In this document: positions 13,183 through 33,362 of the stretch, in pieces
Position numbering within the stretch: position 1 is the first letter of the stretch
Layout of the letters: the number at the start of each line of letters is the position of its first letter
Source: Rhodospirillaceae bacterium
GTDB lineage: Bacteria > Pseudomonadota > Alphaproteobacteria > SMXQ01
DNA length: 64,000 nucleotides
Assembly (NCBI GenBank): GCA_947474495.1
Contig: CANJIM010000004.1
Location: 517 to 64,516 of the forward strand
Direction: 5' to 3'
The notes under the pieces: generated by a model
The model's input: only the letters and a program-made list of their open reading frames with translations
The model's database searches: none
Told to the model about the DNA's origin: nothing
Program-made: the position numbers and the translations under genes

Positions 13183-14379
13183 TTAGAACGTGGCGCGGGT
13201 ACCGATCAAGAGACCGATAGCGGTGTTTTCCGACGTTGTGGCAACACCATCGCTATCGTTTGTGTAATACCAAGTGTCGGCATAGACCACGAGACCGGCA
13301 CCCATGGTGTACTGCGCGCCCAGGGTGAAGGCATCGGAAGTATATTTAGCAGTATTGCTGACCGAGCTAGCATTTGTGTTTCCAGCGTTCGCACCCGCAC
13401 TGTTGTGCATGTATGACACGCCCACCACGTATGGCCCAGTGGTGTACTTCAGGGCACCAGCATAGCCGGAGACATCGCTATTTCCGAGAGCCTTATTTTG
13501 ACCAGATTTTCCGTCATCCCCGTATCCGGCGCTGGCGGTAAAGCCACCAAATTCGGCCTTCGCACTGACCACCCAGGCCTTGATGTCTCTGTTCCAACGC
13601 TGATCATCCGCGTCGGCAAGCGTGGCAGCGGCTGCGAAGCCCAAGGCGAAGTCATCGCTGACCTTTACATCATAGCTAGCGCCAAGTTCCCAGTAATTCT
13701 CGAAACTACCTGGGGCAGAAGCATAAGTTGTCTGTTGGCCCGAACCATCAGTGGCACGCGAAGAACCGTTGTCCTTGTTGCTAGCGCTGTAGGACACGCC
13801 GGCCTGGAATCCCGCAATCGTCGGCGTGTAATACATGATCTTCGTCGCGTCAGAGGAGTTCGACGGATCAGCGCCCGCAGCCCACAGACCGTTAGTGAAG
13901 GTCTTCGTGTTGGTCCAGCGGCGGTAGCCGCGGGCTCCGGACACGCCGATGCCGGTGATCTGGCCATCTCCGACGTAGTTCTTGGCGTCGACCGGGCCGT
14001 CTTCGTTGCCGAGGGTCAGCTGACCCCAGCTGCCGGAGAACACGATCGAGACTTCGTCGGCGTTGTCGTTGCTGCCCGGGTTGACGGTATCAGCGTCAGC
14101 TTCGAGTTCGATCTTGACCGACCAAGCGAGGCCGTTGTCCAGCTTGTCGCTGGCGCGGATCAGCAGCTCGGTGTCCGTCGCCCAGCCGAAGCCGCGGTCC
14201 GTGGTGACCGCCGGAACGCCCGGCGCGGGGCCGAAGCCGGCCGCACTGAGGTCCTGGCTGGAGAAGCCAGCCTGGAAATCAAGGTAGCCGCCGATGCGAA
14301 CTTCGGGGGCCGCCATGGCAGCGGTCGCCGCGAAAGACGCGCCGACCAGGGCAGTCGTGCCCAAAAGCAGTTTCTTCAT
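13183..14379 (-). CDS. Outer-membrane porin (alphaproteobacterial Porin_2/RopA-Omp2-like)
   Basis: Signal peptide MKKLLLGTTALVGASFAATAAMA, beta-strand-rich Gly/Ser/Tyr/Asp composition, C-terminal Phe (..RATF). Confidence 0.8.
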   Translation of the reverse strand: MKKLLLGTTALVGASFAATAAMAAPEVRIGGYLDFQAGFSSQDLSAAGFGPAPGVPAVTTDRGFGWATDTELLIRASDKLDNGLAWSVKIELEADADTVNPGSNDNADEVSIVFSGSWGQLTLGNEDGPVDAKNYVGDGQITGIGVSGARGYRRWTNTKTFTNGLWAAGADPSNSSDATKIMYYTPTIAGFQAGVSYSASNKDNGSSRATDGSGQQTTYASAPGSFENYWELGASYDVKVSDDFALGFAAAATLADADDQRWNRDIKAWVVSAKAEFGGFTASAGYGDDGKSGQNKALGNSDVSGYAGALKYTTGPYVVGVSYMHNSAGANAGNTNASSVSNTAKYTSDAFTLGAQYTMGAGLVVYADTWYYTNDSDGVATTSENTAIGLLIGTRATF

Positions 14380-14923
14380 ACCGATAAACCTCCGGTTTAA
14401 TCCCCCTGCAAACCTGCCGACGAGGGATCATGGAACAGTGAATTTGGGTCGCGCTACTTGCTTCGCCCCGACACCCGACCCAGGAACCCCCTCGGCCGGA
14501 CCCGTGCCTAAAAGCACGTAGCATGGATAGCCTGCCCCGGATGTGCTTGCAATCTGGGCAAAAAACTTGCCCCAGCACTGTCGCATTTTCGCCACATTTC
14601 GGAAAATTGCCATTTTATCAATGGGTTGACTTGAGGCGGGTGACGCAGGGACCGCCCGGCATCTCGCCGAAAAGCTACATCTCCTTGAAATACATACAAA
14701 AAGTCCGATCACGCGCAAAATAGACGTCGGGCCGGCCTAGCGCGATGCCCAATCTCTAGGTGCGGCGCTCCATCAGACGCTAGATGCTTGGCTCTGACGC
14801 CGCGGGGGCTTTGATCTGGGCGATGTTTTGCCAGGCATCGCGCTTTGTCTGGCGCCGCCAGACGGCTGTGATAAATGCTGACCTCGCATTTTGCCTTTTC
14901 AGATCCGGATTGCCGCACCCACC

Positions 14924-16588
14924 ATGACGCCTCAGCCCGCGATCTCCGACGCGCTTCGCCGCGCCATTGCCGCCGCCGAGGCCGGACGCTTCGGCGAGGC
15001 CGGCGCGCGATGCCTGCAGATTCTTGCCGCCAATCCGCAGGACGCCGGAGCACTCGGACTGCAGGGGGCGATGGCGGCGCAACGCGGCGACCTCATGGTG
15101 GCGATCGCGCGCTATCGCGCCGCGCTGACGGTCGCGCCGCGCTTCGTCAAAGCTTTGAGCAATCTCGGCGCCGTTCTGTCGGCGCTCGGCGAGACGGCGG
15201 AAGCCGAGCGCCTCCTGACAGCGGCGTTGGAAGAAGAGCCACATCACGGCGCGAGCTTGATCAATCTCGGCCAGCTGCTGCTGACGCAGCAGCGCAACGC
15301 GGAGGCCATCGTCGCGCTGCGCCGCGCCACCGCGGCGACCCCAAACGATGCCATGGCTTGGAACAATCTCGGCGGCGCCTATCTCGCAGCCGAGCAGCCC
15401 GACGCGGCGGTCGAAGCGCTGCAGCGCGCCCTGGCGCTCGATTCTGCCGTCGTGGCCGCCTGGAGCAATCTCGGCGCGGCGCATTACCGCAGCGGCCGCT
15501 ATGCCGCCGCCGTCGAAGCCTTTCGCGCGGCGCTGGCGCGCGCCGCGACGCCGGAACTGTGGACGCATCTCGGGGCCGCCTTGCGCGGTATCGGCGACGA
15601 GGCCGGCGCGCTTGCCGCCCATGAGCGGGCGCTCGCCGGCAATCCCGACCTCGCCGAGGCGCGCTTCAACCGGGCGCTGCTGCTGCTCGGCCTCGGGCGC
15701 TTCGCTGAAGGCTGGGCCGATTACCGCGCCCGGGTCTCCGGCCGCGCCTTCCGTCGCTGCCAGGCGACCACCGACACGCCGCGCTTGCCGCTCGACATGA
15801 GCGGCCGGCGCCTGCGCCTGGAGAGCAATCAGGGATTCGGCGACGAGCTTTTCTTCCTACGCTTCGCGCCGGCGCTGAAACGCCGCGGCGCGGCCATCGT
15901 CTATCGCGCGGCGGCCAAGGTCGCCGCGCTGGTCCATCCGCTGGCCATCCTCGACGAGGTCGTCGTCGGCGAGGACGGCGCGCCGGCCGACGTCACGCTG
16001 CTGGTCGATGACTTGCCTTATGCCTTGGCCGCCACCGATACGCCGCCTGCCCTGCCGCTCACGCCGGATCCGCAGGTGCAGGCGGCGCTGCGCGCGCGGC
16101 TGGCGCAACTCGGCCCGCCGCCCTATCTCGGCGTCACCTGGCGCGGCGGCGTCGACAAGTCGGGGTCGCTGTTCAAGCGCGCGCCACGCGAAGCCCTCGC
16201 CCGCCTCGCCGGCGAGTGGCCCGGCACAGTTCTCATGCTGCAACGCCAACCCTTGGCCGGCGAGCTCGAGGCCTTAATCGCCGAGGCCGGCCGCATCGCC
16301 CATGATTTCGCGGCGCTGCATGACGATCTCGGCGACATGCTGGCGCTGCTATCGCTGCTCGACGACTATGTCGCCGTCAGCAACACCAACGTCCATCTGC
16401 GGCAAAGTCTCGGCCTGCCGTCGCGCGTGCTGGTGCCGATGCCGCCCGACTGGCGCTGGATGGCGGCGGGCGACGCATCGCCCTGGTTCCCCGGCTGCGC
16501 CATCTATCGCCAGGCGGCCGACGGCAGCTGGAACGAGGCCTTCGCTCGATTGACGCGCGATGTCGCCGCCGCGCGCATGGCGGGTTGA
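14924..16588 (+). CDS. Modular TPR-repeat glycosyltransferase, paralog 1 (N-terminal TPR array plus C-terminal GT9-like GT-B domain; FlmG-like architecture)
   Basis: Multiple A..Y..AL..P....A..NLG TPR units are present. The C-terminal domain carries GFGDELFFLRF, YLGVTWRGG and the DDYVAVSNTNVHLRQSLGLPSRVLVP signature that resembles the heptosyltransferase (GT9) DTGPMHLAAALGTP region. The start is set at the ATG at 14924 (the track begins at the TTG at 14891). Confidence 0.7.
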   Translation: MTPQPAISDALRRAIAAAEAGRFGEAGARCLQILAANPQDAGALGLQGAMAAQRGDLMVAIARYRAALTVAPRFVKALSNLGAVLSALGETAEAERLLTAALEEEPHHGASLINLGQLLLTQQRNAEAIVALRRATAATPNDAMAWNNLGGAYLAAEQPDAAVEALQRALALDSAVVAAWSNLGAAHYRSGRYAAAVEAFRAALARAATPELWTHLGAALRGIGDEAGALAAHERALAGNPDLAEARFNRALLLLGLGRFAEGWADYRARVSGRAFRRCQATTDTPRLPLDMSGRRLRLESNQGFGDELFFLRFAPALKRRGAAIVYRAAAKVAALVHPLAILDEVVVGEDGAPADVTLLVDDLPYALAATDTPPALPLTPDPQVQAALRARLAQLGPPPYLGVTWRGGVDKSGSLFKRAPREALARLAGEWPGTVLMLQRQPLAGELEALIAEAGRIAHDFAALHDDLGDMLALLSLLDDYVAVSNTNVHLRQSLGLPSRVLVPMPPDWRWMAAGDASPWFPGCAIYRQAADGSWNEAFARLTRDVAAARMAG

Positions 16589-16591
16589 GCG

Positions 16592-18259
16592 ATGGCCACC
16601 GCGCTTCACGCCCTCGCGCTGCGCGCCTATCAAGGCGGCCGTCATGCCGAAGCGGCCGACCACTGCCGCGCGCTGCTGCGCAAATCGCCGGACGATCTGC
16701 CGGCGCTGCAAATGCTCGGCGCCATCGCCGCTGCCGGCGGACAATTGGGCGAGGCGCTCGATCTGGCGCGCCGCGCCGCGGCGCTGGCGCCGGACAATCC
16801 CGATACCCAAGGCGCGCTCGGTGCCTTGCTGGCGCAAAGCGGCGACGCCGCCGGCGCGCTGGCGCCGCTCGAGCACGCGCTGGCGCGGCAGCCGCGCAAC
16901 GCCGGCCTGCACAACAGTCGCGCCGACACCCTGCAGCGGCTCGGCCGCTTCGCCGAGGCGCTCGCCGCCTATGATCGGGCGTTGGTCGCCGGACCGCCGC
17001 ATCCCGAGGCCCTGCTGCAGCGCGGCCATGTTTTATTGGCACTGCACAAGCCGGCCGAGGCGCTAGCGAGCTTCGGGAAATCCCTGGCGCAGCGCGGCGA
17101 CGCGCGCCGCATCCATTGTGGCCAGGGGCTGGCCCTGTTGGCGCTCGGCCGCGCCGACGACGCAGCGGCGAGTTTCGAGCGCGTTCTGGCGCTGGCGCCC
17201 AAGGATGCCAATGCCCTCAACAATCTTGCCGTCGCCCGGCATCAGCAGGGTCGCTACGACGAGGCCATGGCGCTCTATGAGCGACTCCTGGCAGGCGCCC
17301 CCGACGATTCTCCGGCGCGGTTCGGCCGGGCACAATTGCACCTCGCCCATGGCCGCTTCCCCGCGGGATGGGACGATCACCGCTGGCGCCAATCGGCGGC
17401 GGAACATCGCGCAGCGCTGTATCAAGAACGCCTGCCGGGGGATCTCACCGGGCAAACTTTTTGGCTCCGCAAGGATCAGGGCCTAGGCGACGAGATTTTC
17501 TTCCTCCGCTTCGCGCCGGCTCTCAAGCGGCGCGGCGCCCATGTGATCTATCAAGCCGGGACCAAGATCGCCGGGCTGCTGCGCCGCCCGCCCGTGCTTG
17601 GCACGGCGCTCGACGGGGTGCTCGACGAGGCGGCGCCGCTGCCCGAGACGGCGCGCGTGCTGTCGGTCGGCGACCTGCCCTACGCCCTCGGCCCCGACAG
17701 CGAGACGCCGCCGCCGCTGGCGCTACAGCCGGACGCAGACCAGTCGGCCGCCATCGCCGCGCGTCTCGCGGCGCTCGGGCCGCCGCCCTACATCGCCGTG
17801 ACCTGGCGCGCGGGAACCTTGGAAAGCAACGCGCTCTACAAGGCAGTGCCGCTGGCGGCGCTGGCCGCCGCGGTGGCGCCGCTGCCCGGCACGCTGATCT
17901 CGGTGCAACGCCTGCCGGCCGCGGGCGAAGGCGCCGCCTTCGCCGCCGCCGCCGGCCGGGCTTTGCACGACCTCTCGGACCTCAACGACGATCTCGAGGC
18001 CATGCTCGCGCTGATGGCGCGACTCGACGACTATGTCGCCGTCAGCAACACCAACGTGCATCTGCGCGCCAGCGCCGGCCGGCCGTCGCGCTTGCTGGTG
18101 CCGATGCCCGCCGACTGGCGTTGGATGGCGGCGGGCGACGAGTCGCCGTGGTTTCCAGGCTCGCCGATTTACCGCCAGGCGTTTGGCGGCTCATGGGATG
18201 CGGCGCTCGCCCGCCTGTCGGCCGATCTCATCGCGGTATTCAGCCTCGCCACTCTGTGA
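16592..18259 (+). CDS. Modular TPR-repeat glycosyltransferase, paralog 2 (TPR plus GT9-like)
   Basis: Same architecture as paralog 1. The C-terminus has DDYVAVSNTNVHLRASAGRPSRLLVPMPADWRWMAAGDESPWFPGSPIYRQA. It starts 3 nt after the paralog 1 stop. Confidence 0.7.
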   Translation: MATALHALALRAYQGGRHAEAADHCRALLRKSPDDLPALQMLGAIAAAGGQLGEALDLARRAAALAPDNPDTQGALGALLAQSGDAAGALAPLEHALARQPRNAGLHNSRADTLQRLGRFAEALAAYDRALVAGPPHPEALLQRGHVLLALHKPAEALASFGKSLAQRGDARRIHCGQGLALLALGRADDAAASFERVLALAPKDANALNNLAVARHQQGRYDEAMALYERLLAGAPDDSPARFGRAQLHLAHGRFPAGWDDHRWRQSAAEHRAALYQERLPGDLTGQTFWLRKDQGLGDEIFFLRFAPALKRRGAHVIYQAGTKIAGLLRRPPVLGTALDGVLDEAAPLPETARVLSVGDLPYALGPDSETPPPLALQPDADQSAAIAARLAALGPPPYIAVTWRAGTLESNALYKAVPLAALAAAVAPLPGTLISVQRLPAAGEGAAFAAAAGRALHDLSDLNDDLEAMLALMARLDDYVAVSNTNVHLRASAGRPSRLLVPMPADWRWMAAGDESPWFPGSPIYRQAFGGSWDAALARLSADLIAVFSLATL

Positions 18260-18299
18260 GATAATTGCCGTCCGGCTCGCTCAATTTAGGATCGCTATT

Positions 18300-19025
18300 T
18301 TGTCAGGTTCTCCGTTCCGTGTGTATGTCGGCTGGGACAGCCGTGAAGAGATCGCCTATGATGTTTGCCGCGAGTCGCTGCAGCACCACGCGTCGATTCC
18401 CGTCGAGGTGATCCCGCTCCAGCAAGGCGAGTTGCGCGCGCGCGGCCTTTACACGCGCGACGCCGATCCGCTGGCCTCGACTGAGTTCACCTACACGCGC
18501 TTTCTCGTGCCCCATCTCGCGGGATACGACGGCTGGGCGCTTTATTGCGACTGCGATTTCCTGTGGACCGGCGACATCGCCGGTCTCGCCGCATACGCCG
18601 ATCCGGACCACGCCGCGCGCTACGGCGCGCTCTGCGTGCAGCACGACTATCGTCCGACCGAAACCACCAAGATGGACGGCAAGGTGCAGACGAGCTATCC
18701 GCGGAAGAACTGGTCGAGCCTGATCCTGTTCAATTGCGCCTATCCGCAGACGCGGCGCCTGACGCCCGAGGTGGTCAACCGCGAGAGCGGCGCCCATCTC
18801 CACCGCTTCCAGTGGCTCGATGACGCCGCGATCGGCGCCGTGCCGGAGACCTGGAACTGGCTCGAAGGCTGGAGCAAGAAGCCGGCCGGCGCGCCGCCCA
18901 ACGTCGTGCATTACACGCGCGGCGGCCCGTGGTTCGCCGATTGGCAGAATGTCGACTACGGCGATCTCTGGCTCGCCGAAGCGGCGCGGATTACGACGGC
19001 GAAGTCCGCCGCGCCAGGCCCTTGA
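18300..19025 (+). CDS. Putative small GT-A/DxD-type glycosyltransferase-like protein. The start is uncertain (TTG 18300 or GTG 18321); the track ORF from 18033 is an upstream extension.
   Basis: VYVGWDSREEIAYDVC, a DxD-like CDCDFLW motif and WNWLEGWS. It has no confidently recognised family and is embedded between TPR-GT paralogs 2 and 3. Confidence 0.45.
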   Translation: MSGSPFRVYVGWDSREEIAYDVCRESLQHHASIPVEVIPLQQGELRARGLYTRDADPLASTEFTYTRFLVPHLAGYDGWALYCDCDFLWTGDIAGLAAYADPDHAARYGALCVQHDYRPTETTKMDGKVQTSYPRKNWSSLILFNCAYPQTRRLTPEVVNRESGAHLHRFQWLDDAAIGAVPETWNWLEGWSKKPAGAPPNVVHYTRGGPWFADWQNVDYGDLWLAEAARITTAKSAAPGP

Positions 19026-20893
19026 GCGCGACGATTTCTCAGGCGCTGCAGACGGCGCTGGCGGCGCATAAGGCGGGGCGCCTGGCCGAAGCCCAAGCCG
19101 CCTATGAAAGCATTCTCGGAATCGATCCGGACAATCCCGATGCTTTGCATCTCTCCGGTTTGGTCCGTCTGCAGCGCGGCAATGCCGCCGTCGCGCGCGA
19201 TCGTCTCGCCCGCGCCGTGGCGCTGCGTCCCCGAATGGCGCCTTATCATATGAATCTCGGTCGGGCGCAGCAGGCTCTGGGACTGTCTGGGGAGGCGGTT
19301 GCCAGCTTTCGTCAAGCTGCCGCGCTAGCACCAGGCGAGGGCGCTGTTTGGCAGCATCTCGCCCTCGCGCTGCGCGGCCAAGGTGATGTCGTCGGCGCTA
19401 TCGATGCCCTGCGCCGCGCCGCGCAAGCGGCGCCGCACGACGCTGCGCCGGCCAACAACCTGTCCGCCATTTTGCTGGAACAAGGCCGTCTCGAGGAAGC
19501 CTGGCCGGCGATTTCGCGCGCCCGGTCGCTCGCGCCGGACAATGCCTTGACGCTATGCAACGAAGGCCAGGCGCTGCTGCTTGAGGGGCGGGCCGCCGAG
19601 GCGCTCGTTCCGCTGCGCCGCGCTGTCGTCGCGCTGCCAGACAATGCCATGATTCTCAATAGTCTCGGCGTCGCACTGCAAGATTCGCAACAGGTCGCCG
19701 AAGCGGTTGACGTGCTGGCACGCGCCGTCGCTCTCGCGCCCACGAGTCCCATCCTCCGCGTCTCCTATGGCAACGCGCTGAAAAAGCACGGTTGCTATGA
19801 CGCGGCGCTGGCGGAATTCGAACAGGCCCTGGCAATGCGGCCGGATGTTGCGGAAATTCATTCCCATATCGGCACCTGCCATGACGCGCTTCTACGCCAC
19901 GACGCAGCCATCGCCTCTTATGATCGCGCGCTGACGTTGAAACCCGACTACGCGCGGGCGCAGCAAAACCGCGCGATGACGCTGCTGACGCTGGGCCACT
20001 TCAAGAACGGTTGGCAGGACTATGTCGCCCGCGACAACAAGCCGAACCTGCTGCTGAACTTGCTCGCGTCCCCCCATGGCGCCGACGACATTCGCGGCCA
20101 GCGTGTTTTATTGTGCGGCGAGCAGGGCCTCGGCGACGAGATTTTCTTTTTGCGCTTCCTGCCTGAACTTCGGCGCCGTGGCGTCGCGCGCGTGACCTAT
20201 ATCGCCGATGCGAAAATCGCAGCGCTGCTGGCGCGTTGCGACGGCCTCGATGCGGTGCAGACGGCGGCAGATGCCTTGCCGCCGGCCGAGACGACCATCG
20301 CCATCGGTGATCTGCCGCTGGTGCTGCGGATGACGACGGCTGGGCAGATTCCGCCTTCGATCTCATTGCCGCCTCTGCCGACGCGCATGGCCGAGATCGC
20401 CGCCCGTCTCGCGGCTTGCGGGCCGCCGCCCTATATCGGTGTGACATGGCGAGCGGGGATCGCCGCCCGTCTCGGCGCCTTGTTCAAGCTCGCGCCGCTG
20501 GCCGACCTCGGAACCTGTCTTCGCGTATTGTCCGGCACGCTGATCGCGCTGCAGCGTCTGCCGCAGGAGGGTGAAATCGCCGCCTTAGCCGCCGCCGCCG
20601 GCAAAGTCGTGCACGACCTCACTGCCCTGAATGACGATCTCGAGGCTATGCTGGCCCTGCTGGCGCAGCTCGACGATTACATCGCCGTCAGCAATACCAA
20701 TATGCATCTGCGCGCTGCCGCCGGCCGGACCAGCCGCGTGCTGGTGCCCTGTCCGCCGGAATTTCGCTGGATGGCGAGCGGCGATGAATCGCCCTGGTTC
20801 CCCGGATCGCCGCTGTATCGCCAAGCCGTCGACCGCACCTGGACGGTGGCGTTGGCGCGTTTGTCTGCTGATCTCCGTGCTGCCGTCGGTTAG
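19022..20893 (+). CDS. Modular TPR-repeat glycosyltransferase, paralog 3 (TPR plus GT9-like)
   Basis: The TTG at 19022 overlaps the upstream stop (TTGA coupling). The C-terminal region is ~75% identical to paralog 2 (DDYIAVSNTNMHLRAAAGRTSRVLVPCPPEFRWMASGDESPWFPGSPLYRQA). Confidence 0.7.
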   Translation: MSATISQALQTALAAHKAGRLAEAQAAYESILGIDPDNPDALHLSGLVRLQRGNAAVARDRLARAVALRPRMAPYHMNLGRAQQALGLSGEAVASFRQAAALAPGEGAVWQHLALALRGQGDVVGAIDALRRAAQAAPHDAAPANNLSAILLEQGRLEEAWPAISRARSLAPDNALTLCNEGQALLLEGRAAEALVPLRRAVVALPDNAMILNSLGVALQDSQQVAEAVDVLARAVALAPTSPILRVSYGNALKKHGCYDAALAEFEQALAMRPDVAEIHSHIGTCHDALLRHDAAIASYDRALTLKPDYARAQQNRAMTLLTLGHFKNGWQDYVARDNKPNLLLNLLASPHGADDIRGQRVLLCGEQGLGDEIFFLRFLPELRRRGVARVTYIADAKIAALLARCDGLDAVQTAADALPPAETTIAIGDLPLVLRMTTAGQIPPSISLPPLPTRMAEIAARLAACGPPPYIGVTWRAGIAARLGALFKLAPLADLGTCLRVLSGTLIALQRLPQEGEIAALAAAAGKVVHDLTALNDDLEAMLALLAQLDDYIAVSNTNMHLRAAAGRTSRVLVPCPPEFRWMASGDESPWFPGSPLYRQAVDRTWTVALARLSADLRAAVG

Positions 20894-22044
20894 ACCGGCG
20901 CGATCACCTTCATCGCCAGCAGCGAGCGCAGCAGCTCGCCGCGCGCCGCGTCGGCGATCTGCGGGAAGGCGGCGGCGAGCGCGGCATCGGCGAACACCTG
21001 TTGTCTGATGATCCAGGCGACGGCGCTATTGAACCCCGGCGGGATCGGCGTGCTTTTGCCGGCGCGCGCGAGCGCCCAACCGCCGCCTTGCGCCACCACC
21101 TTGAAGTCAGCGGCCGTGACGCGATAGCGGGGCGCCGCCGCGCGATAGCGATATGCGTCCTGGAATTGGCATAGCGCGGCCAGATTGACTGGGTCGCTCG
21201 CCATCTCGGCGAGCCGTTGGCCGAGCGCCTGCAGCCGCGCGGCGAAGGCGGCCTCGCCGGCGCCCGCCTCGCGGCCGTGGCGGCGCGGCAGATCGGCGCG
21301 GAACAGCGGCTCCTCGACGGCGCGGGCGAACAACGCGCTGACGACATCGAGGCCGATGACGGCGACGGCGCCGAAGGCGATATGGATGGTGCGCTCGGAG
21401 AGCGCGACGGCGTCGTGATACTGGCCGCGCGGCAAATAGAGAAGATCGCCGGGCTTCATCAGCACCTCGAGGGCGATCCTGCCCTTGGCCTGCTCGTGAA
21501 AGGCGCGCGTCTGGCTCTTGAAGGTCGGATGCTCGATCGGATTGTTGATGCGTCCTTCGTAGATGCGCCACAGCTTCTCGCCATGGACATGCACGGCAAA
21601 GACGTCATGGGTGTCGTAATGGCTGGCGAAAGCTTGGCGCTCGCGCGGGGAGCTGTAGAGATTTGCCTGCACCTTCGATTCGAGGGCGTCTTCCAGCGTC
21701 TGTGCCAGCCCAGCGACCGCGGCCAGGCCGGGTGCCGCCATGTCGATGTCGTTGAGCACGAGGCTGGCGCCACGGTTCAGCAGCGCGCGGACCTTCGGCG
21801 CATCGGGCGCGCCGTTGGCGGCAAGATATTCGGTGCCTGGCACCATGGCGCTGTCGCGCGCCATTTGCAGCGATTGTGCGCCCCACAGGCCGGGTGCGGC
21901 GATGAGTTCGTCGAGCTTGGCGCGTGACATGATGTCGGAAAATTTGTCCGCCTCGCCGGGCACATGCAGCGGCGCGTGGCCGTGATGGCGCTCGAAGAAT
22001 TGTGCCGGCGTGATCGGCGCGAGAATGTCGGTGAAGGAGACCAT
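20890..22044 (-). CDS. JmjC/cupin-4 family (ribosomal-oxygenase-like) Fe(II)/2OG oxygenase domain protein
   Basis: HYDTHDVFAVHVHGEKLW ... YLPRGQYHDAV fits the HxD...H jelly-roll pattern of Cupin_4/JmjC proteins. Confidence 0.6.
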   Translation of the reverse strand: MVSFTDILAPITPAQFFERHHGHAPLHVPGEADKFSDIMSRAKLDELIAAPGLWGAQSLQMARDSAMVPGTEYLAANGAPDAPKVRALLNRGASLVLNDIDMAAPGLAAVAGLAQTLEDALESKVQANLYSSPRERQAFASHYDTHDVFAVHVHGEKLWRIYEGRINNPIEHPTFKSQTRAFHEQAKGRIALEVLMKPGDLLYLPRGQYHDAVALSERTIHIAFGAVAVIGLDVVSALFARAVEEPLFRADLPRRHGREAGAGEAAFAARLQALGQRLAEMASDPVNLAALCQFQDAYRYRAAAPRYRVTAADFKVVAQGGGWALARAGKSTPIPPGFNSAVAWIIRQQVFADAALAAAFPQIADAARGELLRSLLAMKVIAPV

Positions 22045-22069: not shown

Positions 22070-22723
22070 TCAAGCCAAACTCTGAAAATCGACGTCGCCG
22101 CGGTCAACGTCGTCGGCCTTTCGCCTGCGGCTGGTCAATCCATCGATGGCGGCGATCCCGGTCGCGCCGCTGCCGCGCAAGCGGCGGGCGTTGTGTTCGG
22201 CGATGCCGCCGAGCCCGTAGACCGGGATCGAGCTGCTGCGGACCCAGGCGGCGAAGCGCAGCGAGCCGAGCGGCGCGGCGCCGGGGTGGCTCAGGGTGGC
22301 GAACACCGGCGACAGCAAGGCCGCCGTCACGCCGGCCTGCGTGGCGCGGCGCAAGGCCGGGATCGAATGGGCGGCGGCGGTGACCAGCCAGTGGGGCAAT
22401 TTGCGCAGCCGCGTGCCGGCGCGCTGCAGCGCGCGTTCGGAGAAATGCACGCCATCTGCGCCAACGTCGAGGGCCATGCGCATGTCGTCGGCGATCAGCA
22501 GCTTGACGCGGCGCGCAGTCGTCGCGGCGCGCAGGATACGGGCGAGCGCCAAGCGCGATTGCAGTACCAACTCGTGGTGGCGGAAGATGACTGCCGATCC
22601 CGGCGGCAACCTTAGAATGGTGGCTACGGGATCAGGGGTTCTTTGGCTGTCCGTCACGAAGATCAGGCGCGGCAAGGACTCGCCGCCGAGATGCGCGCAG
22701 GTCTGCCGAACGGCGGCCCGCAT
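22070..22723 (-). CDS. thiE: Thiamine-phosphate synthase (ThiE) family protein
   Basis: LIFVTD, GADGVH and IPVYGLGGI motifs of the TMP-TENI fold. The start is set at an internal Met. Confidence 0.6.
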   Translation of the reverse strand: MRAAVRQTCAHLGGESLPRLIFVTDSQRTPDPVATILRLPPGSAVIFRHHELVLQSRLALARILRAATTARRVKLLIADDMRMALDVGADGVHFSERALQRAGTRLRKLPHWLVTAAAHSIPALRRATQAGVTAALLSPVFATLSHPGAAPLGSLRFAAWVRSSSIPVYGLGGIAEHNARRLRGSGATGIAAIDGLTSRRRKADDVDRGDVDFQSLA

Positions 22724-22809
22724 GCGCCTTAATTTGAGGTGATGCGCGGCAGATGCTAGATTGAAAATCATTCTAGTCACGAAGTTTCGCACTCAACCTA
22801 GAGGCCAAA

Positions 22810-23694
22810 TTGTCAGAAGCGCACGCGCCGGGCGGCACAGCAATCGTTTATTATCCCGAAATCAAGCCCTGGATCATTAAGGATTTGGCCGAACGATTCT
22901 GCGCGGAATTCACCAAGCGCGGTCATCGCAGCGCGCTGATCAATAGCCCGCTCGCAGGCTATGACACTTACTATCACTTCAATTATCTACAGTGTCGCGG
23001 CGTCTTGCCCAATACGAAAAATTTCACATACGTCACCCATGTGAATACGCCGGCCAAACTCTCGCTGCTGCGCGGCCAGGCGGAGGCCGGTATCGTCGGC
23101 ATTTGCATGTCGGAAGATACCGCGCGTCGCCTGCGCGAGCTCACCGGATTCAACCGGTTCGTGGGGTTGACGCCGCCGGCGCTGCGCTACGGGGAGTTTC
23201 CCGATCTCAGCATCTTGATCGCGAGCCGGCTCTATGACGACGGCAGAAAAAACCTGACGACGATGAAAGAGGCTTTGGACCGCTTGAGGGGACCAAACAG
23301 CGTTTTGAACATTATGGGCTCGGGCTGGGAAGAGTTCATTGCGGCCTATAAAGATCAATTCAAAGAGATCAATTACCACCCGGTCTTCTCGGAGCGGACT
23401 TACCTGGAGCTGATCGAGGCGACGAACCTGCTAATATACTCAGGATTCGACGAGGGCGCGATCTCTGTGCTGGATTATCTCGCGAGCGGCAAACGCGTTT
23501 TGACGACCGCTCAAGGCTATCACTTGGATTATGCGGATTGCGCAAATCTATATTTGTTTTCCGACGCGCCGACACTCGATGCGCAAATCTCGAAAATACA
23601 AATGGAAATCAACCTCGCTCGGGCCCAGCATAAAAGAGTGACAGACTGGGACGGCTATTGCGCGCGGCATATCGAGCTGTTCGGCAAAAGCTAG
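22810..23694 (+). CDS. Putative glycosyltransferase (GT-B C-terminal-domain-like); first gene of the low-GC island
   Basis: RLYDDGRKNLTTMKEALDRL ... VLNIMGSGWEEF ... YLASGKRVLTT resembles the GT4 C-terminal domain. GC is clearly lower than the genome background. Confidence 0.5.
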   Translation: MSEAHAPGGTAIVYYPEIKPWIIKDLAERFCAEFTKRGHRSALINSPLAGYDTYYHFNYLQCRGVLPNTKNFTYVTHVNTPAKLSLLRGQAEAGIVGICMSEDTARRLRELTGFNRFVGLTPPALRYGEFPDLSILIASRLYDDGRKNLTTMKEALDRLRGPNSVLNIMGSGWEEFIAAYKDQFKEINYHPVFSERTYLELIEATNLLIYSGFDEGAISVLDYLASGKRVLTTAQGYHLDYADCANLYLFSDAPTLDAQISKIQMEINLARAQHKRVTDWDGYCARHIELFGKS

Positions 23695-23695
23695 C

Positions 23696-24631
23696 TCATA
23701 CGGTCGCCGGCGGTTTTCGGTCGAGATAGCCGAGCAGGACATCGACCATGATCTTGCGGTTTCCCTTTAGATGAAAAATGAATTTGCTATCGAGTTGGGC
23801 CTTGTTGTAGCGGACGGTTTCCTCGAAGGAAAAATTAAACCTATCTACGGGAAAGACACAGATCCGGGGCTTTAGAGCTAATTTCGCGGCTTTCTTCTTA
23901 TCTAAGAAAACGCTGGTGATCGTATTGAGACTTAGCTGGCCGCCGCGCCAGCGCCGGATGTCTCCGTAATAGTCGGCAAAAAACTTTTCTTGGACCAACT
24001 TTTCGTATGTCGCGACATACGAATTGAAGAACGCTTTTACCAAACCTGTTCGGGGGGGGGCGGCAAAAATAACCCCTTCGTTGAACGGCATAAGATTAGA
24101 CGCGATTCTTAGCGTTACACCTATATCGAAATTCTTTGTAAACAGGTTGCTCAGGTTCAATCCGACGAAGGTGTCGCTATCGAGAAACGCGGTTTGATGA
24201 TCGAACATGCTCGATCTGACGTAGGCCGCCATCGCATAGGCCCTTTCGTATAGTGGCTGTGCGGCGTTGACGTCGAGGACCACCCTGACAATGTTTTCGC
24301 TTTCGGGAATGTTGAAGTGCGGATCGTTCGATACGAAGATGATTCGCAGATTTTTAAAAAGACGGAGCGTGTTCGATAAAGATTTCCAAATAATATAATT
24401 GTAGTCGTATTTACCGAGATCGAGATTCAAGTCGGGATATTTTAGTAGCTGATTTTCAGGCGCCATCGCGACGTGGAACATAAATATATTACAATTTATT
24501 TCTTCTGCCGCCGCGCGATACGCAGAATTGAAACTTGACTTGAGGGCATCAATTTTCGCATTCGCGGCGGGTTCGGGCGTCAAACTAAAACAGGGTGAGG
24601 CCGCCCTCAATACTTGTTCAATGGGAATCAT
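23696..24631 (-). CDS. Hypothetical sugar-transferase-like protein (low GC) containing a C9 homopolymeric tract in the coding strand
   Basis: 311-aa intact ORF with a DSDTF DxD-like motif and AT-rich codon usage. The poly-G run at 24052-24060 encodes AAPPRTG. Confidence 0.5.
   Translation of the reverse strand: MIPIEQVLRAASPCFSLTPEPAANAKIDALKSSFNSAYRAAAEEINCNIFMFHVAMAPENQLLKYPDLNLDLGKYDYNYIIWKSLSNTLRLFKNLRIIFVSNDPHFNIPESENIVRVVLDVNAAQPLYERAYAMAAYVRSSMFDHQTAFLDSDTFVGLNLSNLFTKNFDIGVTLRIASNLMPFNEGVIFAAPPRTGLVKAFFNSYVATYEKLVQEKFFADYYGDIRRWRGGQLSLNTITSVFLDKKKAAKLALKPRICVFPVDRFNFSFEETVRYNKAQLDSKFIFHLKGNRKIMVDVLLGYLDRKPPATV
24052..24060. repeat. Homopolymeric G9 (C9 on the coding strand) tract inside the CDS 23696..24631
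   Basis: Directly visible as cggggggggg/cgg at 24051-24063. Confidence 0.9.
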
Positions 24632-24668
24632 TTGCTTCTCTGGTTCCGATAAATTTCTTTAAGTGACG

Positions 24669-25448
24669 TTAGTGGGCAACGAGGACGGCATAGCCGTACC
24701 AGGTCGTCTCGTCGAGGCCCTTGTCCGTCATCCACCCACCTGTTTCGCAGATTTTGAAGCCGCAGTGCGAAGCGTGACGTTCAATTTCCGGCGCGAACAA
24801 ATAGCGCATGATATGGGTTTCGTGGATGTGCGCCGCCTCGGATCTTAAACCGTTAGATATGGTCACGTCGTAATGAACCGCCACTATGTTGCGTTCGACG
24901 TCCATCTCTGGCGTCGCGGTGCGGATGACTTGCGTTCCGTCCTTGCTGAGGCTCTTGACGCGTCTCTCGGGCCTATCGTGGAGTACCGCCGGACCGTACC
25001 AAAAATCGAAAATAAAAACGCCTCCCGGCCTTAGAGCGGCCCGTGCCGTCTTGAAAAATCCAGCGAGCGATTCGTCGGTCGTTTGGTAATTGACGACATG
25101 GAACAAGGAGACTGCCACATCGAATATGCCCAAGCCGACAGCGTTCGACACGTCCGCTTGGACCAGCGTCACACGCGGACGCGTGTTTTCTGGAAGACGC
25201 GAGACGCTGGCGCGGGCCAAATCCAGCATGCCGGGGCTTATATCGACGCCCTTGACCACATAACCGGCCGCAGCGAACTGGGTCGTGTGGCGCGCGTTGC
25301 CGCAACCGAGATCGATGATCGATTTTGCCTGCGGGGCGTATGCAGAGATTTTGGCTTTAACGAACTCGGACTCTAAAGCGTAGTCCTTGTCCGTATAAAA
25401 CAGTTCGTAATACAGGGCATATCGATCAAAGATCGCCACGGAGGACAT
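24669..25448 (-). CDS. Class I SAM-dependent methyltransferase, TylM1/DesVI-like (predicted sugar N,N-dimethyltransferase)
   Basis: N-terminus FDRYALYYELFY..KDYALESEFVKA and IIDLGCGNARHT (motif I) match the N-terminal pattern of dTDP-aminosugar N-methyltransferases. Confidence 0.6.
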   Translation of the reverse strand: MSSVAIFDRYALYYELFYTDKDYALESEFVKAKISAYAPQAKSIIDLGCGNARHTTQFAAAGYVVKGVDISPGMLDLARASVSRLPENTRPRVTLVQADVSNAVGLGIFDVAVSLFHVVNYQTTDESLAGFFKTARAALRPGGVFIFDFWYGPAVLHDRPERRVKSLSKDGTQVIRTATPEMDVERNIVAVHYDVTISNGLRSEAAHIHETHIMRYLFAPEIERHASHCGFKICETGGWMTDKGLDETTWYGYAVLVAH

Positions 25449-26544
25449 CCTTCAGAGCCGTCGCGGACCGATCGATTTCGTCCTTGGTCGACCCGACGCC
25501 GCTGGGGAGATAAAAGCCGCGGTCCGCGAGCCGCTCCGACTGGGGGTAGCTCTCACCCGCGAAGAGGCCCAAATCGCGAAGCGCCGGCTGCTTGTGCATG
25601 GGCCAGAAGAAATGTCGAGCATCGACGCCTTTGCGCCGCAGGGCCGCGATCGCGGCGGCGGCATCGAGAGGCGCCTCATCGGCCAGGACGACGCCGAATA
25701 CCCAATAGATATTTTTGGCATAATCTGTTTTTGCCTCGGGCAATCGCAATAGAGGTTGGCTGTCGAGACGCTCCCGGTACCAGCGGCCGATCTGGCGCTT
25801 CTTTTCAATCGTGCGCGCAATGACCTCGAGCTGCGCCACGCCGACGGCGGCTTGGAGGTTGCTCATTCTGAAATTCCAGCCTAGCTCGGCGTGGATGTAG
25901 CGCCGCTCCTTGTCGAAAAATAGGTTTCGCGCCGCGCGGCAGCGCTCGGCCAGATCGGGATCGTCGGTCAAGACCATGCCGCCTTCGCCGGTTGTGACGT
26001 GCTTGTTGGGATAAAAGCTGACCGTGCTGATGTCGCCCAGCGATCCGACCTTGCGTTCCTTATATTGTTGGCCTTGCTGTTCGGCGGCATCTTCGATGAT
26101 CTGCAAGCCCCGCTCACGGGCGAGCGCGAAGATAGGATCCATGTCGACTGGTAGGCCGAAGATATGGACGACCATGATGGCTTTGGTTTTGGCCGTGATG
26201 CGCGCCGCGACTTGCCGGACATCCATGTTCCAGGTGACTGGATCGCAATCGACGAGAACGGGCGTCGCGCCGGCGCGTACGATGGCCGCCGCACAGGAGA
26301 TGATCGTGAAAGACGGCAAGATGACTTCATCGTCCGGCCCGATCTTCAGCGCGGCCACGGCGATGTCGAGGGCGCAGCTGCCGTTGCAGACGGCGATGCC
26401 ATGCTTTCGGCCGACGAATGCGGCGAACTCAGCCTCGAGCCGTTTGACGAACGGCCCCTCGGAAGAAATCCAACCGGAATCGATGCATTCGTTCAGGTAT
26501 TTTTTTTCGTTGCCCTCGAGGAGCGGCCGATTCACCGGGATCAT
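25426..26544 (-). CDS. DegT/DnrJ/EryC1/StrS family PLP-dependent sugar aminotransferase (FdtB/TylB-like)
   Basis: NRPLLEGNEKKYLNECIDSGWISSEGPFVKRLEAEFAAFVG, a typical DegT N-terminus. The start is set at an internal Met (the track ORF extends to 26613). Confidence 0.8.
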   Translation of the reverse strand: MIPVNRPLLEGNEKKYLNECIDSGWISSEGPFVKRLEAEFAAFVGRKHGIAVCNGSCALDIAVAALKIGPDDEVILPSFTIISCAAAIVRAGATPVLVDCDPVTWNMDVRQVAARITAKTKAIMVVHIFGLPVDMDPIFALARERGLQIIEDAAEQQGQQYKERKVGSLGDISTVSFYPNKHVTTGEGGMVLTDDPDLAERCRAARNLFFDKERRYIHAELGWNFRMSNLQAAVGVAQLEVIARTIEKKRQIGRWYRERLDSQPLLRLPEAKTDYAKNIYWVFGVVLADEAPLDAAAAIAALRRKGVDARHFFWPMHKQPALRDLGLFAGESYPQSERLADRGFYLPSGVGSTKDEIDRSATALKDVLRGDL

Positions 26545-26548
26545 GGGT

Positions 26549-26980
26549 TTAATCGAAATTGAATGTGTCGGGCGGAGGACAGTCGAATCGTGTCTTGTCG
26601 TCGTCCCCGACATAGGGGCCTTGTTTGATCTCGACCATGTTCAGCTCTTCGAGCACCTCGAAACCATGACCGCCCGAGATCAGCAGAATGACGTCGCCGG
26701 CGCATAGAATGCGGCTCGTCTTGTACGCGTTGATCTGATCGTAAAAATCTACGCGCAGCCGTCCTTTGCGGATGAAGAGCGTTTCTTGCGTATAAAGAAC
26801 TTCTCGGCGGATAGGATTGTGCGTATGGGCCGGAATCAATTTCCCCGATGGGTAAGACATGGCGCCCATCTGCTGGGAAAAATTATTCTGCGTAAAAAAA
26901 TGAATGCCCGGCTCGTTAAAATCGGCAGGCAGAATAATGGCGTAGAGGATTGAGTCGATATATATGTATTCTTGCTGCAT
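26549..26980 (-). CDS. dTDP-4-keto-6-deoxyhexose 3,4-ketoisomerase (FdtA/QdtA/Tyl1a family, WxcM-like cupin)
   Basis: ~140-aa cupin with HTHNPIRREVLYTQETLFIRKGRLRVDFYD and DVILLISGGHGFEVL. Its size and motifs are typical of FdtA. Confidence 0.65.
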   Translation of the reverse strand: MQQEYIYIDSILYAIILPADFNEPGIHFFTQNNFSQQMGAMSYPSGKLIPAHTHNPIRREVLYTQETLFIRKGRLRVDFYDQINAYKTSRILCAGDVILLISGGHGFEVLEELNMVEIKQGPYVGDDDKTRFDCPPPDTFNFD

Positions 26981-27091
26981 GAAGTATTATTCCAGACCCG
27001 CTGGACGCAATAAAGCTTCGCTAAGCAATATCAAATATTGAGACGCTGCACACTGTAAATTCGCAAATCGGAAAACTAAGGCCGATTCAAC

Positions 27092-27802
27092 ATGATTGCC
27101 CCCTTGGTAGAGACTTCCTCCGACGTCACGATCAGCCAAGCCTTGGCAACTGTGCGCAGCGACATCGCCGAGGCGGTGCGCGCCAGCGGGCGCGAGCCAT
27201 CGGCGGTGACCCTGGTTGCCGTCAGCAAAGGCCACGACGCCGATGAAGCGGCGCAAGCCATCGCCGCCGGCCAGCGCGTGTTCGGCGAAAACCGCGTCCA
27301 GGAAGCGCAAGGAAAATGGCCGCCGCTGCGCGCAGCGCACGCCGATCTCGAACTGCATCTGATCGGCCCGCTACAGACCAACAAGGTGCGCGAGGCGGTG
27401 GCGCTGTTCGATGTCATCCAGTCGCTCGACCGCGCCCGCCTCGCCGACGCCCTGGCCGCTGAAATGGACAAGCAGGCCAAGCGGCCGCGCCTGTTCGTGC
27501 AGGTCAACACCGGCGAAGAGGTGCAGAAGGCCGGCGTGTTGCCGGCGGAAGCCGCCGCCTTCGTGCGTTGGTGTCGCGACGAGAAAAAATTACCGGTCGT
27601 CGGTTTGATGTGCATCCCGCCGGTCGATGAAGAGGCGGCGCTGCACTTCGCGCTGCTGCGCGAACTGGCGGAAGATGCCGGCGTGACGCAGCTCAGCATG
27701 GGCATGAGCGCCGACTTCGCGCTCGGCGTCCGCCTCGGCGCGACGCATGTGCGCGTCGGCACAGCTATCTTCGGCGAACGGCATTATCCGCCGAAGGCCT
27801 AA
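27092..27802 (+). CDS. yggS: YggS-family pyridoxal-phosphate homeostasis protein (PLPHP)
   Basis: LVAVSKGH..., FGENRVQE and alanine-racemase-N-like fold motifs. Confidence 0.85.
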   Translation: MIAPLVETSSDVTISQALATVRSDIAEAVRASGREPSAVTLVAVSKGHDADEAAQAIAAGQRVFGENRVQEAQGKWPPLRAAHADLELHLIGPLQTNKVREAVALFDVIQSLDRARLADALAAEMDKQAKRPRLFVQVNTGEEVQKAGVLPAEAAAFVRWCRDEKKLPVVGLMCIPPVDEEAALHFALLRELAEDAGVTQLSMGMSADFALGVRLGATHVRVGTAIFGERHYPPKA

Positions 27803-31874: not shown

Positions 31875-33362
31875 TTGCCATGGGCGTCAAGTTCTTCCAT
31901 ATCTAGCGCCGCGCCGACGGGGCGTTTGGGGGAACTCTTGTCCAAGCATAAAGACGACATTCGCCAGCATTTCGATGCCATCGCGCCATCGCGCGCCGCA
32001 TGGATCGAGAAGAACGCCTTTTTCTACGAATCCGACTGGCGCTACATGCGCTTCCTGATTCCCGAGGGCAAACGCGTTCTCGAACTCGGCTGCGGCAACG
32101 GCGCTCTGCTCGCGCGGCTGCGCCCGTCGCGCGGCGTCGGCATCGACATCAGCCCGCGTATGATCGAGCGGGCGAAGCTCGACTTTCCCAACCTTGAATT
32201 CGTCGTCGGCGACATCGAGGACGCCGCCACCCTGGCGGCGCTGCCCGGCCCGTTCGATTACGTCGTGCTGTCGGACACGCTCGGCAACCTCGAAGACTGC
32301 CAGGCCATGCTCGACCGCCTGCACCAGGTCTGCCACAGCGAAACGCGCATCGTCTGCGCCTATTATTCGCCGCTGTGGGAGCCGGTGATGACGCTGGCGG
32401 AAAAGGCCGGCGGCAAGATGCCGCAGCCGCAGCAGAACTGGTTCTCCGCCGAGGATATCGCCGCCCTGCTCGATCTCGGCGACTTCGACGTGGTGCGGCG
32501 CGAATGGCGCCAGCTGCTGCCCAAGCGGGCCTTCGGCCTCGGCTGGCTGGTGAACTCGACGCTGGCGGCGCTGCCGCTGCTGCGCCGGCTCTGCCTGCGC
32601 CATTATGTCGTCGCCCGTTCGATGCGCCATGTCAGCCCGGACGCGCCCTCGGTCACCGTCGTCGTGCCCTGCCGCAACGAGCGCGGCAATATCGAAGCGG
32701 CGGTGACGCGCACGCCGAAGCTCGGTCCCAAGCAAGAAATCATCTTCGTCGAAGGCAACAGCAACGACGGCACCTATGAGGAATGCCTGCGCGTGCAGGC
32801 GGCCTACCCCGATCACAGCATTCGCGTGATGAAGCAGGAAGGCCGCGGCAAGGGCGACGCCGTGCGCAAAGGCTTTGCCGCCGCCGAAGGCGATATCCTG
32901 ATGATTCTCGATGCGGACCTCACCGTGCCGCCGGAATCGCTGCCCAAATTCGTCGCCGCCATCGCCTCGGGCAAGGGCGAGTTCGTCAACGGCACGCGGC
33001 TGGTCTATCCGTTCGAGAAGGGCGCCATGCGCTTCTTGAACTTCCTCGCCAATCGTAGCTTCGCGGCGATCTTCTCCTGGCTGCTCGATCAGCGCTTCAC
33101 CGACACCCTGTGCGGCACCAAGGTGCTGCGCAAGCGCGACTACGACCAGATCGTCGCCAACCGCGCCTATTTCGGCGATTTCGATCCGTTCGGCGATTTC
33201 GATCTGATCTTCGGCGCCGCCAAGCTGAGCCTCAAGGTCGTCGAAGTGCCGATCCGCTACGCCGACCGCACCTATGGCGAAACCAACATCTCGCGCTTCC
33301 GCCACGGCTGGCTGCTGCTGCGCATGGTGGCCTTTGCCTTCCGCAAGATGAAGGTCGCGTGA
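31875..33362 (+). CDS. Bifunctional class I SAM-methyltransferase::GT2 (DPM1/ArnC/GtrB-like polyprenyl-phosphate glycosyltransferase) fusion protein. The likely true start is the TTG at 31938, which is preceded by GGGGGAA.
   Basis: N-terminal domain has VLELGCGNGALL (MTase motif I). C-terminal domain has VVVPCRNERGNI, ILDADLT and DTLCGTK, typical of GT2 Dpm1-like enzymes. Confidence 0.75.
   Translation: MPWASSSSISSAAPTGRLGELLSKHKDDIRQHFDAIAPSRAAWIEKNAFFYESDWRYMRFLIPEGKRVLELGCGNGALLARLRPSRGVGIDISPRMIERAKLDFPNLEFVVGDIEDAATLAALPGPFDYVVLSDTLGNLEDCQAMLDRLHQVCHSETRIVCAYYSPLWEPVMTLAEKAGGKMPQPQQNWFSAEDIAALLDLGDFDVVRREWRQLLPKRAFGLGWLVNSTLAALPLLRRLCLRHYVVARSMRHVSPDAPSVTVVVPCRNERGNIEAAVTRTPKLGPKQEIIFVEGNSNDGTYEECLRVQAAYPDHSIRVMKQEGRGKGDAVRKGFAAAEGDILMILDADLTVPPESLPKFVAAIASGKGEFVNGTRLVYPFEKGAMRFLNFLANRSFAAIFSWLLDQRFTDTLCGTKVLRKRDYDQIVANRAYFGDFDPFGDFDLIFGAAKLSLKVVEVPIRYADRTYGETNISRFRHGWLLLRMVAFAFRKMKVA

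Follow-up and report, generated by a model that had tools for sequence, protein, structure and literature searches.

In a 64,000-nucleotide stretch of DNA from a Rhodospirillaceae bacterium (GenBank assembly GCA_947474495.1, contig CANJIM010000004.1, positions 517 to 64,516; here called the window), three genes encode a tetratricopeptide repeat (TPR) array fused to a C-terminal glycosyltransferase (GT)-like domain of ~305 aa (the C-domain). The three genes, P1, P2, and P3, form an array with a small GT gene between P2 and P3, they resemble the gene for the flagellin O-glycosyltransferase FlmG in sequence and architecture, and a porin gene lies divergent to them, a pairing that recurs at related loci. 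We tentatively read the array as a module for cytoplasmic protein O-glycosylation of the FlmG type, in which a GT8-like protein is the second enzyme and the adjacent porin the most likely acceptor. What is new here is the occurrence of FlmG-like enzymes in a multienzyme array, probably with a nonflagellar acceptor.

The array had been described as four packed, co-directional genes at 14924-20893, and all of them were present, with a 3-nt gap between P1 and P2 and a TTGA stop/start overlap between the small gene and P3. The lengths of all four agreed with those of a separate gene call made on the source contig (ENA ERZ27277814, k141_4372515, 65.9 kb). The GC content at third codon positions of the array genes was 0.73 to 0.84, like that of the surrounding genes, in a window of ~65% GC. 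The N-terminal halves of P1 to P3 matched many TPR models of Pfam (E 1e-20 to 1e-32), and the N-terminal sequences lacked signal peptides. The signature motifs reported for the C-domains (GDE[IL]FFLRF, VTWR[AG]G, DDY[VI]AVSNTN[VM]HLR, and SPWFPG..YRQ) were found in all three proteins and were near-invariant across 60 homologues. Moreover, positions that do not vary among 60 family members (the GLGD motif, W-R, VSNTN, and W-F) are retained in each of the three, and thus no paralog looks like a dead enzyme.

FlmG binds its acceptor flagellin through a TPR half, its C-terminal half is the glycosyltransferase domain, and swapping that domain alters the sugar transferred (PMC7591256). The Caulobacter vibrioides FlmG sequence was found by an exact DNA scan with the gene-specific part of primer NK-74 (PMC7591256 supplement), which led to a locus (L009) encoding a 596-aa FlmG beside an flmH-like gene and three flagellin genes. 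BLASTP aligned FlmG with P2 over 504 residues at 28% identity (E 3e-29), and hhalign matched FlmG to the C-domain profile A3 over 297 columns (99.4%, E 5e-21, 27% identity), such that homology covers both domains and the FlmG-type architecture proposed for the array holds. Several family-invariant positions differ in FlmG, in which FSNATINLAG stands for VSNTNVHLRA and LWKSL for TWRAG, and the donor and acceptor of the window enzymes therefore need not equal those of FlmG. We conclude from these alignments that P1 to P3 are true but distant FlmG homologues with the same architecture.

Sequence models placed the C-domain in no described family. The isolated C-domains of P1 to P3 gave no Pfam match even at E<=10, PF01075 (GT9) included; Pfam likewise gave no C-domain match for 30 family members, with no PF01075 at E<=1; and NCBIfam gave no match outside the TPR region of P1 to P3. 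FlmG itself matched Pfam GT9 only at E 0.16, below threshold. A phmmer search of the large proteins against PDB sequences returned nothing significant, and a profile of 30 C-domains had as its top match the GT9 enzyme 3tov, at a nonsignificant E of 0.17, in an alignment that places the C-domain motif QGLGDE opposite the 3tov motif LGD. An AlphaFold2 model of P2 made with 60 homologues as input (predicted local distance difference test score 95.6; predicted template modeling score 0.91) contains a TPR superhelix of 15 TPR-like helices and, C-terminal to it, a pair of Rossmann-like lobes, in agreement with the fusion claimed for each large protein, and the two halves are predicted with confidence to be held in a fixed arrangement. 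The C-domain is predicted to adopt a GT-B fold, with GT9 enzymes and TibC as nearest solved neighbors. The heptosyltransferase likeness in the original prediction thus stands for the predicted fold but not for sequence models. A failure of the C-domains to match GT9 models, which that prediction had named as evidence against itself, is what hidden Markov models returned, and it is overridden only by the structural and profile-profile evidence. We conclude that "GT9-like" is the right description of the predicted C-domain fold and one that cannot be demonstrated with sequence models.

The small gene between P2 and P3 had been taken for a DxD-type glycosyltransferase. Its predicted fold is GT-A, closest to GT8 enzymes, and it carries the DxD motif as an invariant D84-C-D86, together with an H204..GGPW motif. 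The predicted structure supports the claim. By sequence, the product matches PF01501 (Glyco_transf_8) below threshold, scoring 12.5 bits (E 0.11) where the cut-off is 24.3, and no match was found among PDB sequences, even by profile. The protein is unusually conserved, with 64-83% identity among the 120 homologues listed, and its closest homologues are named Alphaproteobacteria bacterium, Pseudolabrys, and Nisaea. Among its nearest fold neighbors are enzymes of protein-linked glycans (GlyE, glycogenin, and Skp1 Gat1), and collagen LH3 also belongs to these neighbors. At a locus of the cultured Nisaea acidiphila (L006; CP102480.1, 2855318-2876037), a small GT8-like gene lies amid GT4 genes and genes for weakly TPR-like proteins with an FlmG-like domain, along with a KdsA-like gene and a type I secretion pair (ATP-binding cassette [ABC] and membrane fusion proteins), a context unlike that of the porin-linked loci described below.

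P2 and P3 had been described as ~75% identical in their C-domains and, on that ground, as products of a recent duplication. Identity of 75% is restricted to the last 90 residues (68/90); over the whole C-domain (~300 residues), P2 and P3 are 54% identical, P1 and P2 55%, and P1 and P3 49%, and the TPR halves of the three proteins are 31-39% identical. Neighbor-joining trees were poorly resolved and star-like and were therefore used for nearest-neighbor statements only. In the distance tree, which lacked many porin-adjacent genes because their domain hits were split, P1 grouped with the porin-adjacent genes of two related contigs (L010 and L013) and P3 with the second gene of L013, and P2 branched outside the P1 group. 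The closest related contig, L013, is ~74-77% identical to the window in DNA and has one gene in place of P1 and P2, and its P3 orthologue comes after the small GT. P2-type proteins exist elsewhere (e.g., P0001, 77% identical in the C-domain), and arrays of two to four copies, often with an embedded small GT, were found at 35 of 89 loci, the distant assembly GCA_040960315.1 included. We conclude that a recent duplication is ruled out by the pairwise identities, the distance tree, and the comparison with L013, and arrays in distant contigs point the same way. The C-domain family is large: counted as cluster representatives, it has 28,757 members at E<=1e-3, 16,934 at E<=1e-10, and 1,292 at E<=1e-30. 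Proteins of 1000-3100 aa (P0362-P0381 and similar) carry two to six FlmG-like C-domains per chain, and either tandem arrays also exist as gene fusions or these are unsplit gene calls.

The divergently oriented major porin gene, which the original prediction had mentioned in passing, was present and became the strongest lead. Metagenome contigs were scanned with the C-domain profile, which gave 80 loci whose neighboring open reading frames (ORFs) were clustered; the 44 loci that had 1.5 kb or more of sequence upstream were considered informative. The commonest neighbor of the TPR-GT genes was a Porin_4 gene (cluster representative E 8e-34). A divergent porin immediately upstream, as in the window, was found at 18 of the 44 informative loci, three more had a porin fragment at the contig end, and the divergent pairing was also present in L007. 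As a rough estimate, which was not computed, chance would place a porin there in well under 1% of cases, because a genome has few porin genes among thousands. The linked porins are diverse (median identity 39%, minimum 22%), and genes beyond them are not conserved. At two loci, L050 and L052, a porin gene and then two TPR-GT genes follow one another on one strand, with gaps of 18 and 0 nt in L050. Neighbor clusters 5, 9, and 10 were set aside, as they look like antisense artifacts of high-GC DNA produced by crude ORF picking.

The linkage was also seen when the search started from the porin. Homologues of one linked porin (47-50% identity) were looked up in five contexts, and in all five a gene for a 631-662 aa TPR protein was divergent to the porin; an FlmG-like C-domain was confirmed in the three contexts checked (E 1e-106 to 1e-113). 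The five contexts have MgtE and/or extracytoplasmic function sigma factor neighbors in common and thus probably represent one lineage rather than independent cases. The GT8-like small gene was confirmed in two of them (L090 and L092), a gene for a 163-164 aa Cys-rich protein usually came after the TPR-GT gene, and in four the far side of the porin was occupied by a TPR-GT41 gene. L092 carries repeats of the porin/TPR-GT/Cys-rich unit: beside an intact unit, fragments of TPR-GT and Cys-rich ORFs separate two porin copies (L092:8148-10387); the cassette seems to have been duplicated as a unit, with one copy decayed. We conclude that linkage of TPR-GT genes to porin genes is recurrent.

Two further observations concern the porin-linked loci. 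In L007, L090, L091, L093, and L094 the porin has a gene for a TPR protein glycosyltransferase on each side, and the two are of unrelated classes, the second being a TPR::GT41 (OGT/HMW1C-type) gene (L007:1371-3980, L090:8294-10741, L091:4651-7113, L093:7243-9705, and L094:8015-10477). A Cys-rich protein of 163-187 aa with no Pfam match adjoins the TPR-GT gene, mostly directly downstream, in L021, L031, L037, L040, L054, L060, L080, L086, and L090-L094 (e.g., L031:5123-5683). It may be a dedicated partner, and tblastn did not find it in the window.

Flagellin genes were linked to the family as well. At three loci (L026, L041, and L088) a flagellin gene lies directly downstream of a TPR-GT gene, and two of these loci have a small GT. 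Taken together, the members linked to flagellin and those linked to porin suggest a rule for this superfamily, namely that the acceptor gene often adjoins the enzyme gene; the members followed by flagellin fit it. At the window porin itself, ~220 nt at the start codon (14380-14600) are almost invariant among the window, L010, and L013, despite the porin proteins being only 78% identical, which suggests a conserved long mRNA leader or a regulatory target. The leader had no Rfam match and an ordinary folding energy (z -0.8).

We consider it probable that P1 to P3 function as protein glycosyltransferases; that the neighboring porin is what they modify is a possibility to which we give somewhat less than an even chance. 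If so, the N-terminal TPR superhelix of each large protein would hold the acceptor protein, and by homology to FlmG, the C-terminal GT9-fold GT-B domain would move a sugar from a nucleotide-activated donor onto it. The TPR halves are strongly diverged and the catalytic halves better conserved, and the three paralogs would for that reason serve different sites, acceptors, or sugars. The GT8-like enzyme, judged by fold neighbors of which several act on protein-linked glycans, would add a further sugar onto the first. The porin would be modified in the cytoplasm as a precursor, before Sec export, a route with precedents in the cytoplasmic heptosylation of autotransporters by TibC/AAH and the glycosylation of HMW1 by HMW1C. 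Enzymatic activity, a protein rather than a lipid or glycan as acceptor, the identity of that acceptor, and the donor sugar are what we infer in this scheme. With slightly more reserve, we put forward the wider idea of an undescribed but widespread cytoplasmic system dedicated to general porins, in which FlmG-like TPR enzymes would recognize the precursor and glycosylate it before export; a GT8-like enzyme would often take part, as would, in other lineages, the Cys-rich partner and a GT41-TPR enzyme. FlmG would then be one specialized, flagellin-directed branch of a very large acceptor-next-door superfamily.

Several points weigh against porin glycosylation by the array. GT9-fold enzymes classically act on lipopolysaccharide (LPS), not on proteins. 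FlmG is the only family member with biochemical evidence, and the porin linkage is a matter of gene context, with 26 of the 44 informative loci having no adjacent porin. Many porin-linked loci may belong to uncultured lineages that are related to one another, and the counts are therefore not of independent events. No Ser/Thr motif was common to the window-type porin and the other linked porins. A Q-[TSA]-S-T-V start was common in one porin group, was not in the window porin, and was dropped as uninformative. Bulky glycans could be a problem, because a porin crosses the Sec translocon unfolded and then folds into a barrel. No gene for nucleotide-sugar activation was identified in the conserved core, and the only sugar genes near the window array are those of a strain-specific island. 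No paper was found with the porin-glycosylation phrases searched, nothing relevant was found in the literature on TPR plus GT9 plus protein glycosylation, and the only O-glycosylated porin found in the literature was the Campylobacter major outer membrane protein (PMC3909276).

The array could instead carry out ordinary FlmG-type glycosylation of flagellins encoded elsewhere in the genome, with the porin as an incidental neighbor. The sole characterized homologue modifies flagellin (PMC7591256), three related loci have the flagellin gene directly downstream, and the window is one metagenome contig, such that flagellar genes could lie elsewhere. As had been claimed, however, no flagellin or flagellar gene was present among the ~45 window ORFs scanned against Pfam, and Pfam and NCBIfam scans of the 64 kb found no pseudaminic or legionaminic acid synthase; the window DegT gene scores below the LegC and PseC model cut-offs, and the association with flagellin and with these sugar pathways that marks the FlmG class is absent from the 64-kb window. 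Identity to FlmG is 27-28%, with several motifs differing, and among related loci porin adjacency is ~6-fold commoner than flagellin adjacency and in some cases operon-like. We regard flagellin as an unlikely acceptor on this evidence.

It is also improbable, though conceivable, that the enzymes are not protein glycosyltransferases at all and that they are GT9-like enzymes which build or decorate the LPS core or another envelope glycan, with the TPRs serving complex assembly and the porin adjacent because both serve the outer membrane. Consistent with this, the nearest solved folds are LPS heptosyltransferases, members in L006 and L008 are surrounded by large clusters of polysaccharide genes that include GT4s, a Wzy_C protein, and ABC transporters, and DegT, formyltransferase, and sugar O-methyltransferase genes are frequent neighbors. 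Homology to FlmG is nevertheless far stronger than homology to LPS enzymes (E 5e-21 versus E 0.17), rigid packing of a long TPR array against the catalytic domain typifies enzymes directed at proteins, OGT and FlmG among them, and neither porin-specific pairing nor duplication of a porin/TPR-GT unit is expected of a general LPS function. Least probable of the alternatives is the glycosylation of one or more other proteins, for example after hydroxylation by the JmjC-type oxygenase encoded next to the array. A JmjC_2 gene abuts the array in the window and in L013 (13548-14735) and lies immediately upstream of the TPR-GT genes on the same strand in L014 (L014:2670-3917) and L028 (L028:278-1405), a pairing that hints at a hydroxylase-plus-glycosyltransferase pathway, with the JmjC_2 product possibly a weakly associated protein hydroxylase. 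Such pathways exist elsewhere, Skp1 and collagen LH3 enzymes are among the fold neighbors of the small GT, and the divergent TPR halves of the three paralogs suggest several acceptors. The link was, however, seen at only four loci, all of the window's own lineage, against more than 25 for the porin, and the JmjC gene of the window is on the opposite strand.

The features of the window that bear on the array are collected in Table 1. The low-GC island downstream lies between thiamine-phosphate-synthase-like and YggS-like genes and contains two orphan ORFs (294 and 311 aa), an S-adenosylmethionine-dependent methyltransferase gene, a DegT-type aminotransferase gene, and a 143-aa ORF; the 294-, 311-, and 143-aa ORFs gave no family matches. 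The island is missing from L013, whose DNA aligns on both flanks, and is thus an insertion rather than part of the core of the module. It looks like a horizontally acquired sugar-modification islet and may supply the donor sugar. A DegT aminotransferase gene occurs at six loci, recurring in five besides the window, and at three of the six it is accompanied by formyltransferase and CmcI-like methyltransferase genes. Other recurrent neighbors of the TPR-GT genes encode an aldo-keto reductase (14 loci) and a methyltransferase (5 loci). Apart from the array, a second cluster that looks related to glycosylation lies at 31875-36857.

Table 1. Array genes, flanking features, and other sugar-related features of the window (coordinates are window positions)
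Feature	Position	Strand	Description
P1	14924-16588	+	554 aa; TPR array (~250 aa) and FlmG-like C-domain of predicted GT9 fold (305 aa); porin-adjacent paralog
P2	16592-18259	+	555 aa; second TPR::FlmG-like glycosyltransferase; extra copy relative to closest related contig L013
Small GT	18300-19025	+	241 aa, TTG start; GT8-like glycosyltransferase of predicted GT-A fold
P3	19022-20893	+	623 aa, TTG start; third TPR::FlmG-like glycosyltransferase; longer TPR array (~316 aa)
Porin gene	13183-14379	-	398 aa, signal peptide; Pfam Porin_4 E 2.9e-35; divergent to array; proposed acceptor
Divergent intergenic region	14380-14923	.	544 nt; presumed promoters of porin gene and array
JmjC_2/cupin oxygenase gene	20890-22044	-	Pfam JmjC_2 E 4.3e-25; convergent with P3, 4-nt overlap
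Low-GC island	22594-27152	.	54-60% GC; sugar-modifying genes; from GC profile and Pfam and NCBIfam matches
Methyltransferase::GT2 fusion	31875-33362		
Large multi-pass membrane protein	C-terminal part of ORF 34093-36792	-	No Pfam match; strong AT skew
LPG_synthase_TM protein	35904-36857		

FlmG is the only studied member of a class that the literature presents as narrow and restricted to Caulobacterales (bioRxiv 10.1101/2023.12.03.569772), and the homologous domain reported here has ~17,000 cluster representatives (E<=1e-10) and is matched by no Pfam or NCBIfam model. If the porin link is functional, many uncultured Proteobacteria would have glycoproteins as their major porins, produced through a cytoplasmic pathway, and porins are central to permeability, to phage and antibody recognition, and to vaccine design. 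The acceptor-next-door pattern, whether with flagellin or porin, gives a simple and testable rule by which the proteins that bacterial protein glycosyltransferases modify can be predicted. Should the link have no functional meaning, the annotation is still corrected, from generic "TPR proteins" or "PilF/TadD" to FlmG-like enzymes of predicted GT9 fold with a GT8-like partner.

Among known systems, the GT9 ADP-heptose:LPS heptosyltransferases (WaaC/WaaF; PDB 1psw and 3tov) differ from the window proteins in sequence (12-16% identity, no PF01075 match, best E 0.17), and the window proteins differ from them in carrying a long TPR array and in their homology to a protein glycosyltransferase. No gene of a heptose pathway was noticed around the array, which is not decisive. 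The autotransporter heptosyltransferases TibC and AAH (BAHT; PDB 4rap) are likewise distant, TibC having no TPR domain and 14% identity. What we take to define TibC is an iron-binding cysteine cluster, in keeping with the PDB title "iron-containing ... TibC"; such a cluster cannot form in the P2 C-domain, which is free of cysteine. The small ORF is unlike the retaining GT8 enzymes (LgtC, GlyE, glycogenin, and Skp1 Gat1) by sequence, falling below the Pfam GT8 threshold. P1 to P3 gave no match to PF13844 (Glyco_transf_41) and in that respect are unlike the GT41 enzymes (OGT, SPINDLY, Xanthomonas XCC0866, and HMW1C), which they resemble in setting a TPR superhelix on a GT-B catalytic domain and whose acceptors are proteins. 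From FlmG of Caulobacter crescentus and Brevundimonas subvibrioides, a flagellin O-glycosyltransferase that transfers pseudaminic or legionaminic acid, the window proteins differ in identity (27-28%), in forming three tandem copies with a GT8-like partner rather than a single flmG, and in lying beside a porin, with neither flagellin nor a pseudaminic/legionaminic acid pathway in the 64 kb. They are like FlmG in combining a TPR array with a C-terminal GT-B domain of ~290-310 aa, in the (E/D)QGLGDE motif, in having no signal peptide, and in scoring below the Pfam GT9 threshold, and some members of their family are, like FlmG, linked to flagellin.

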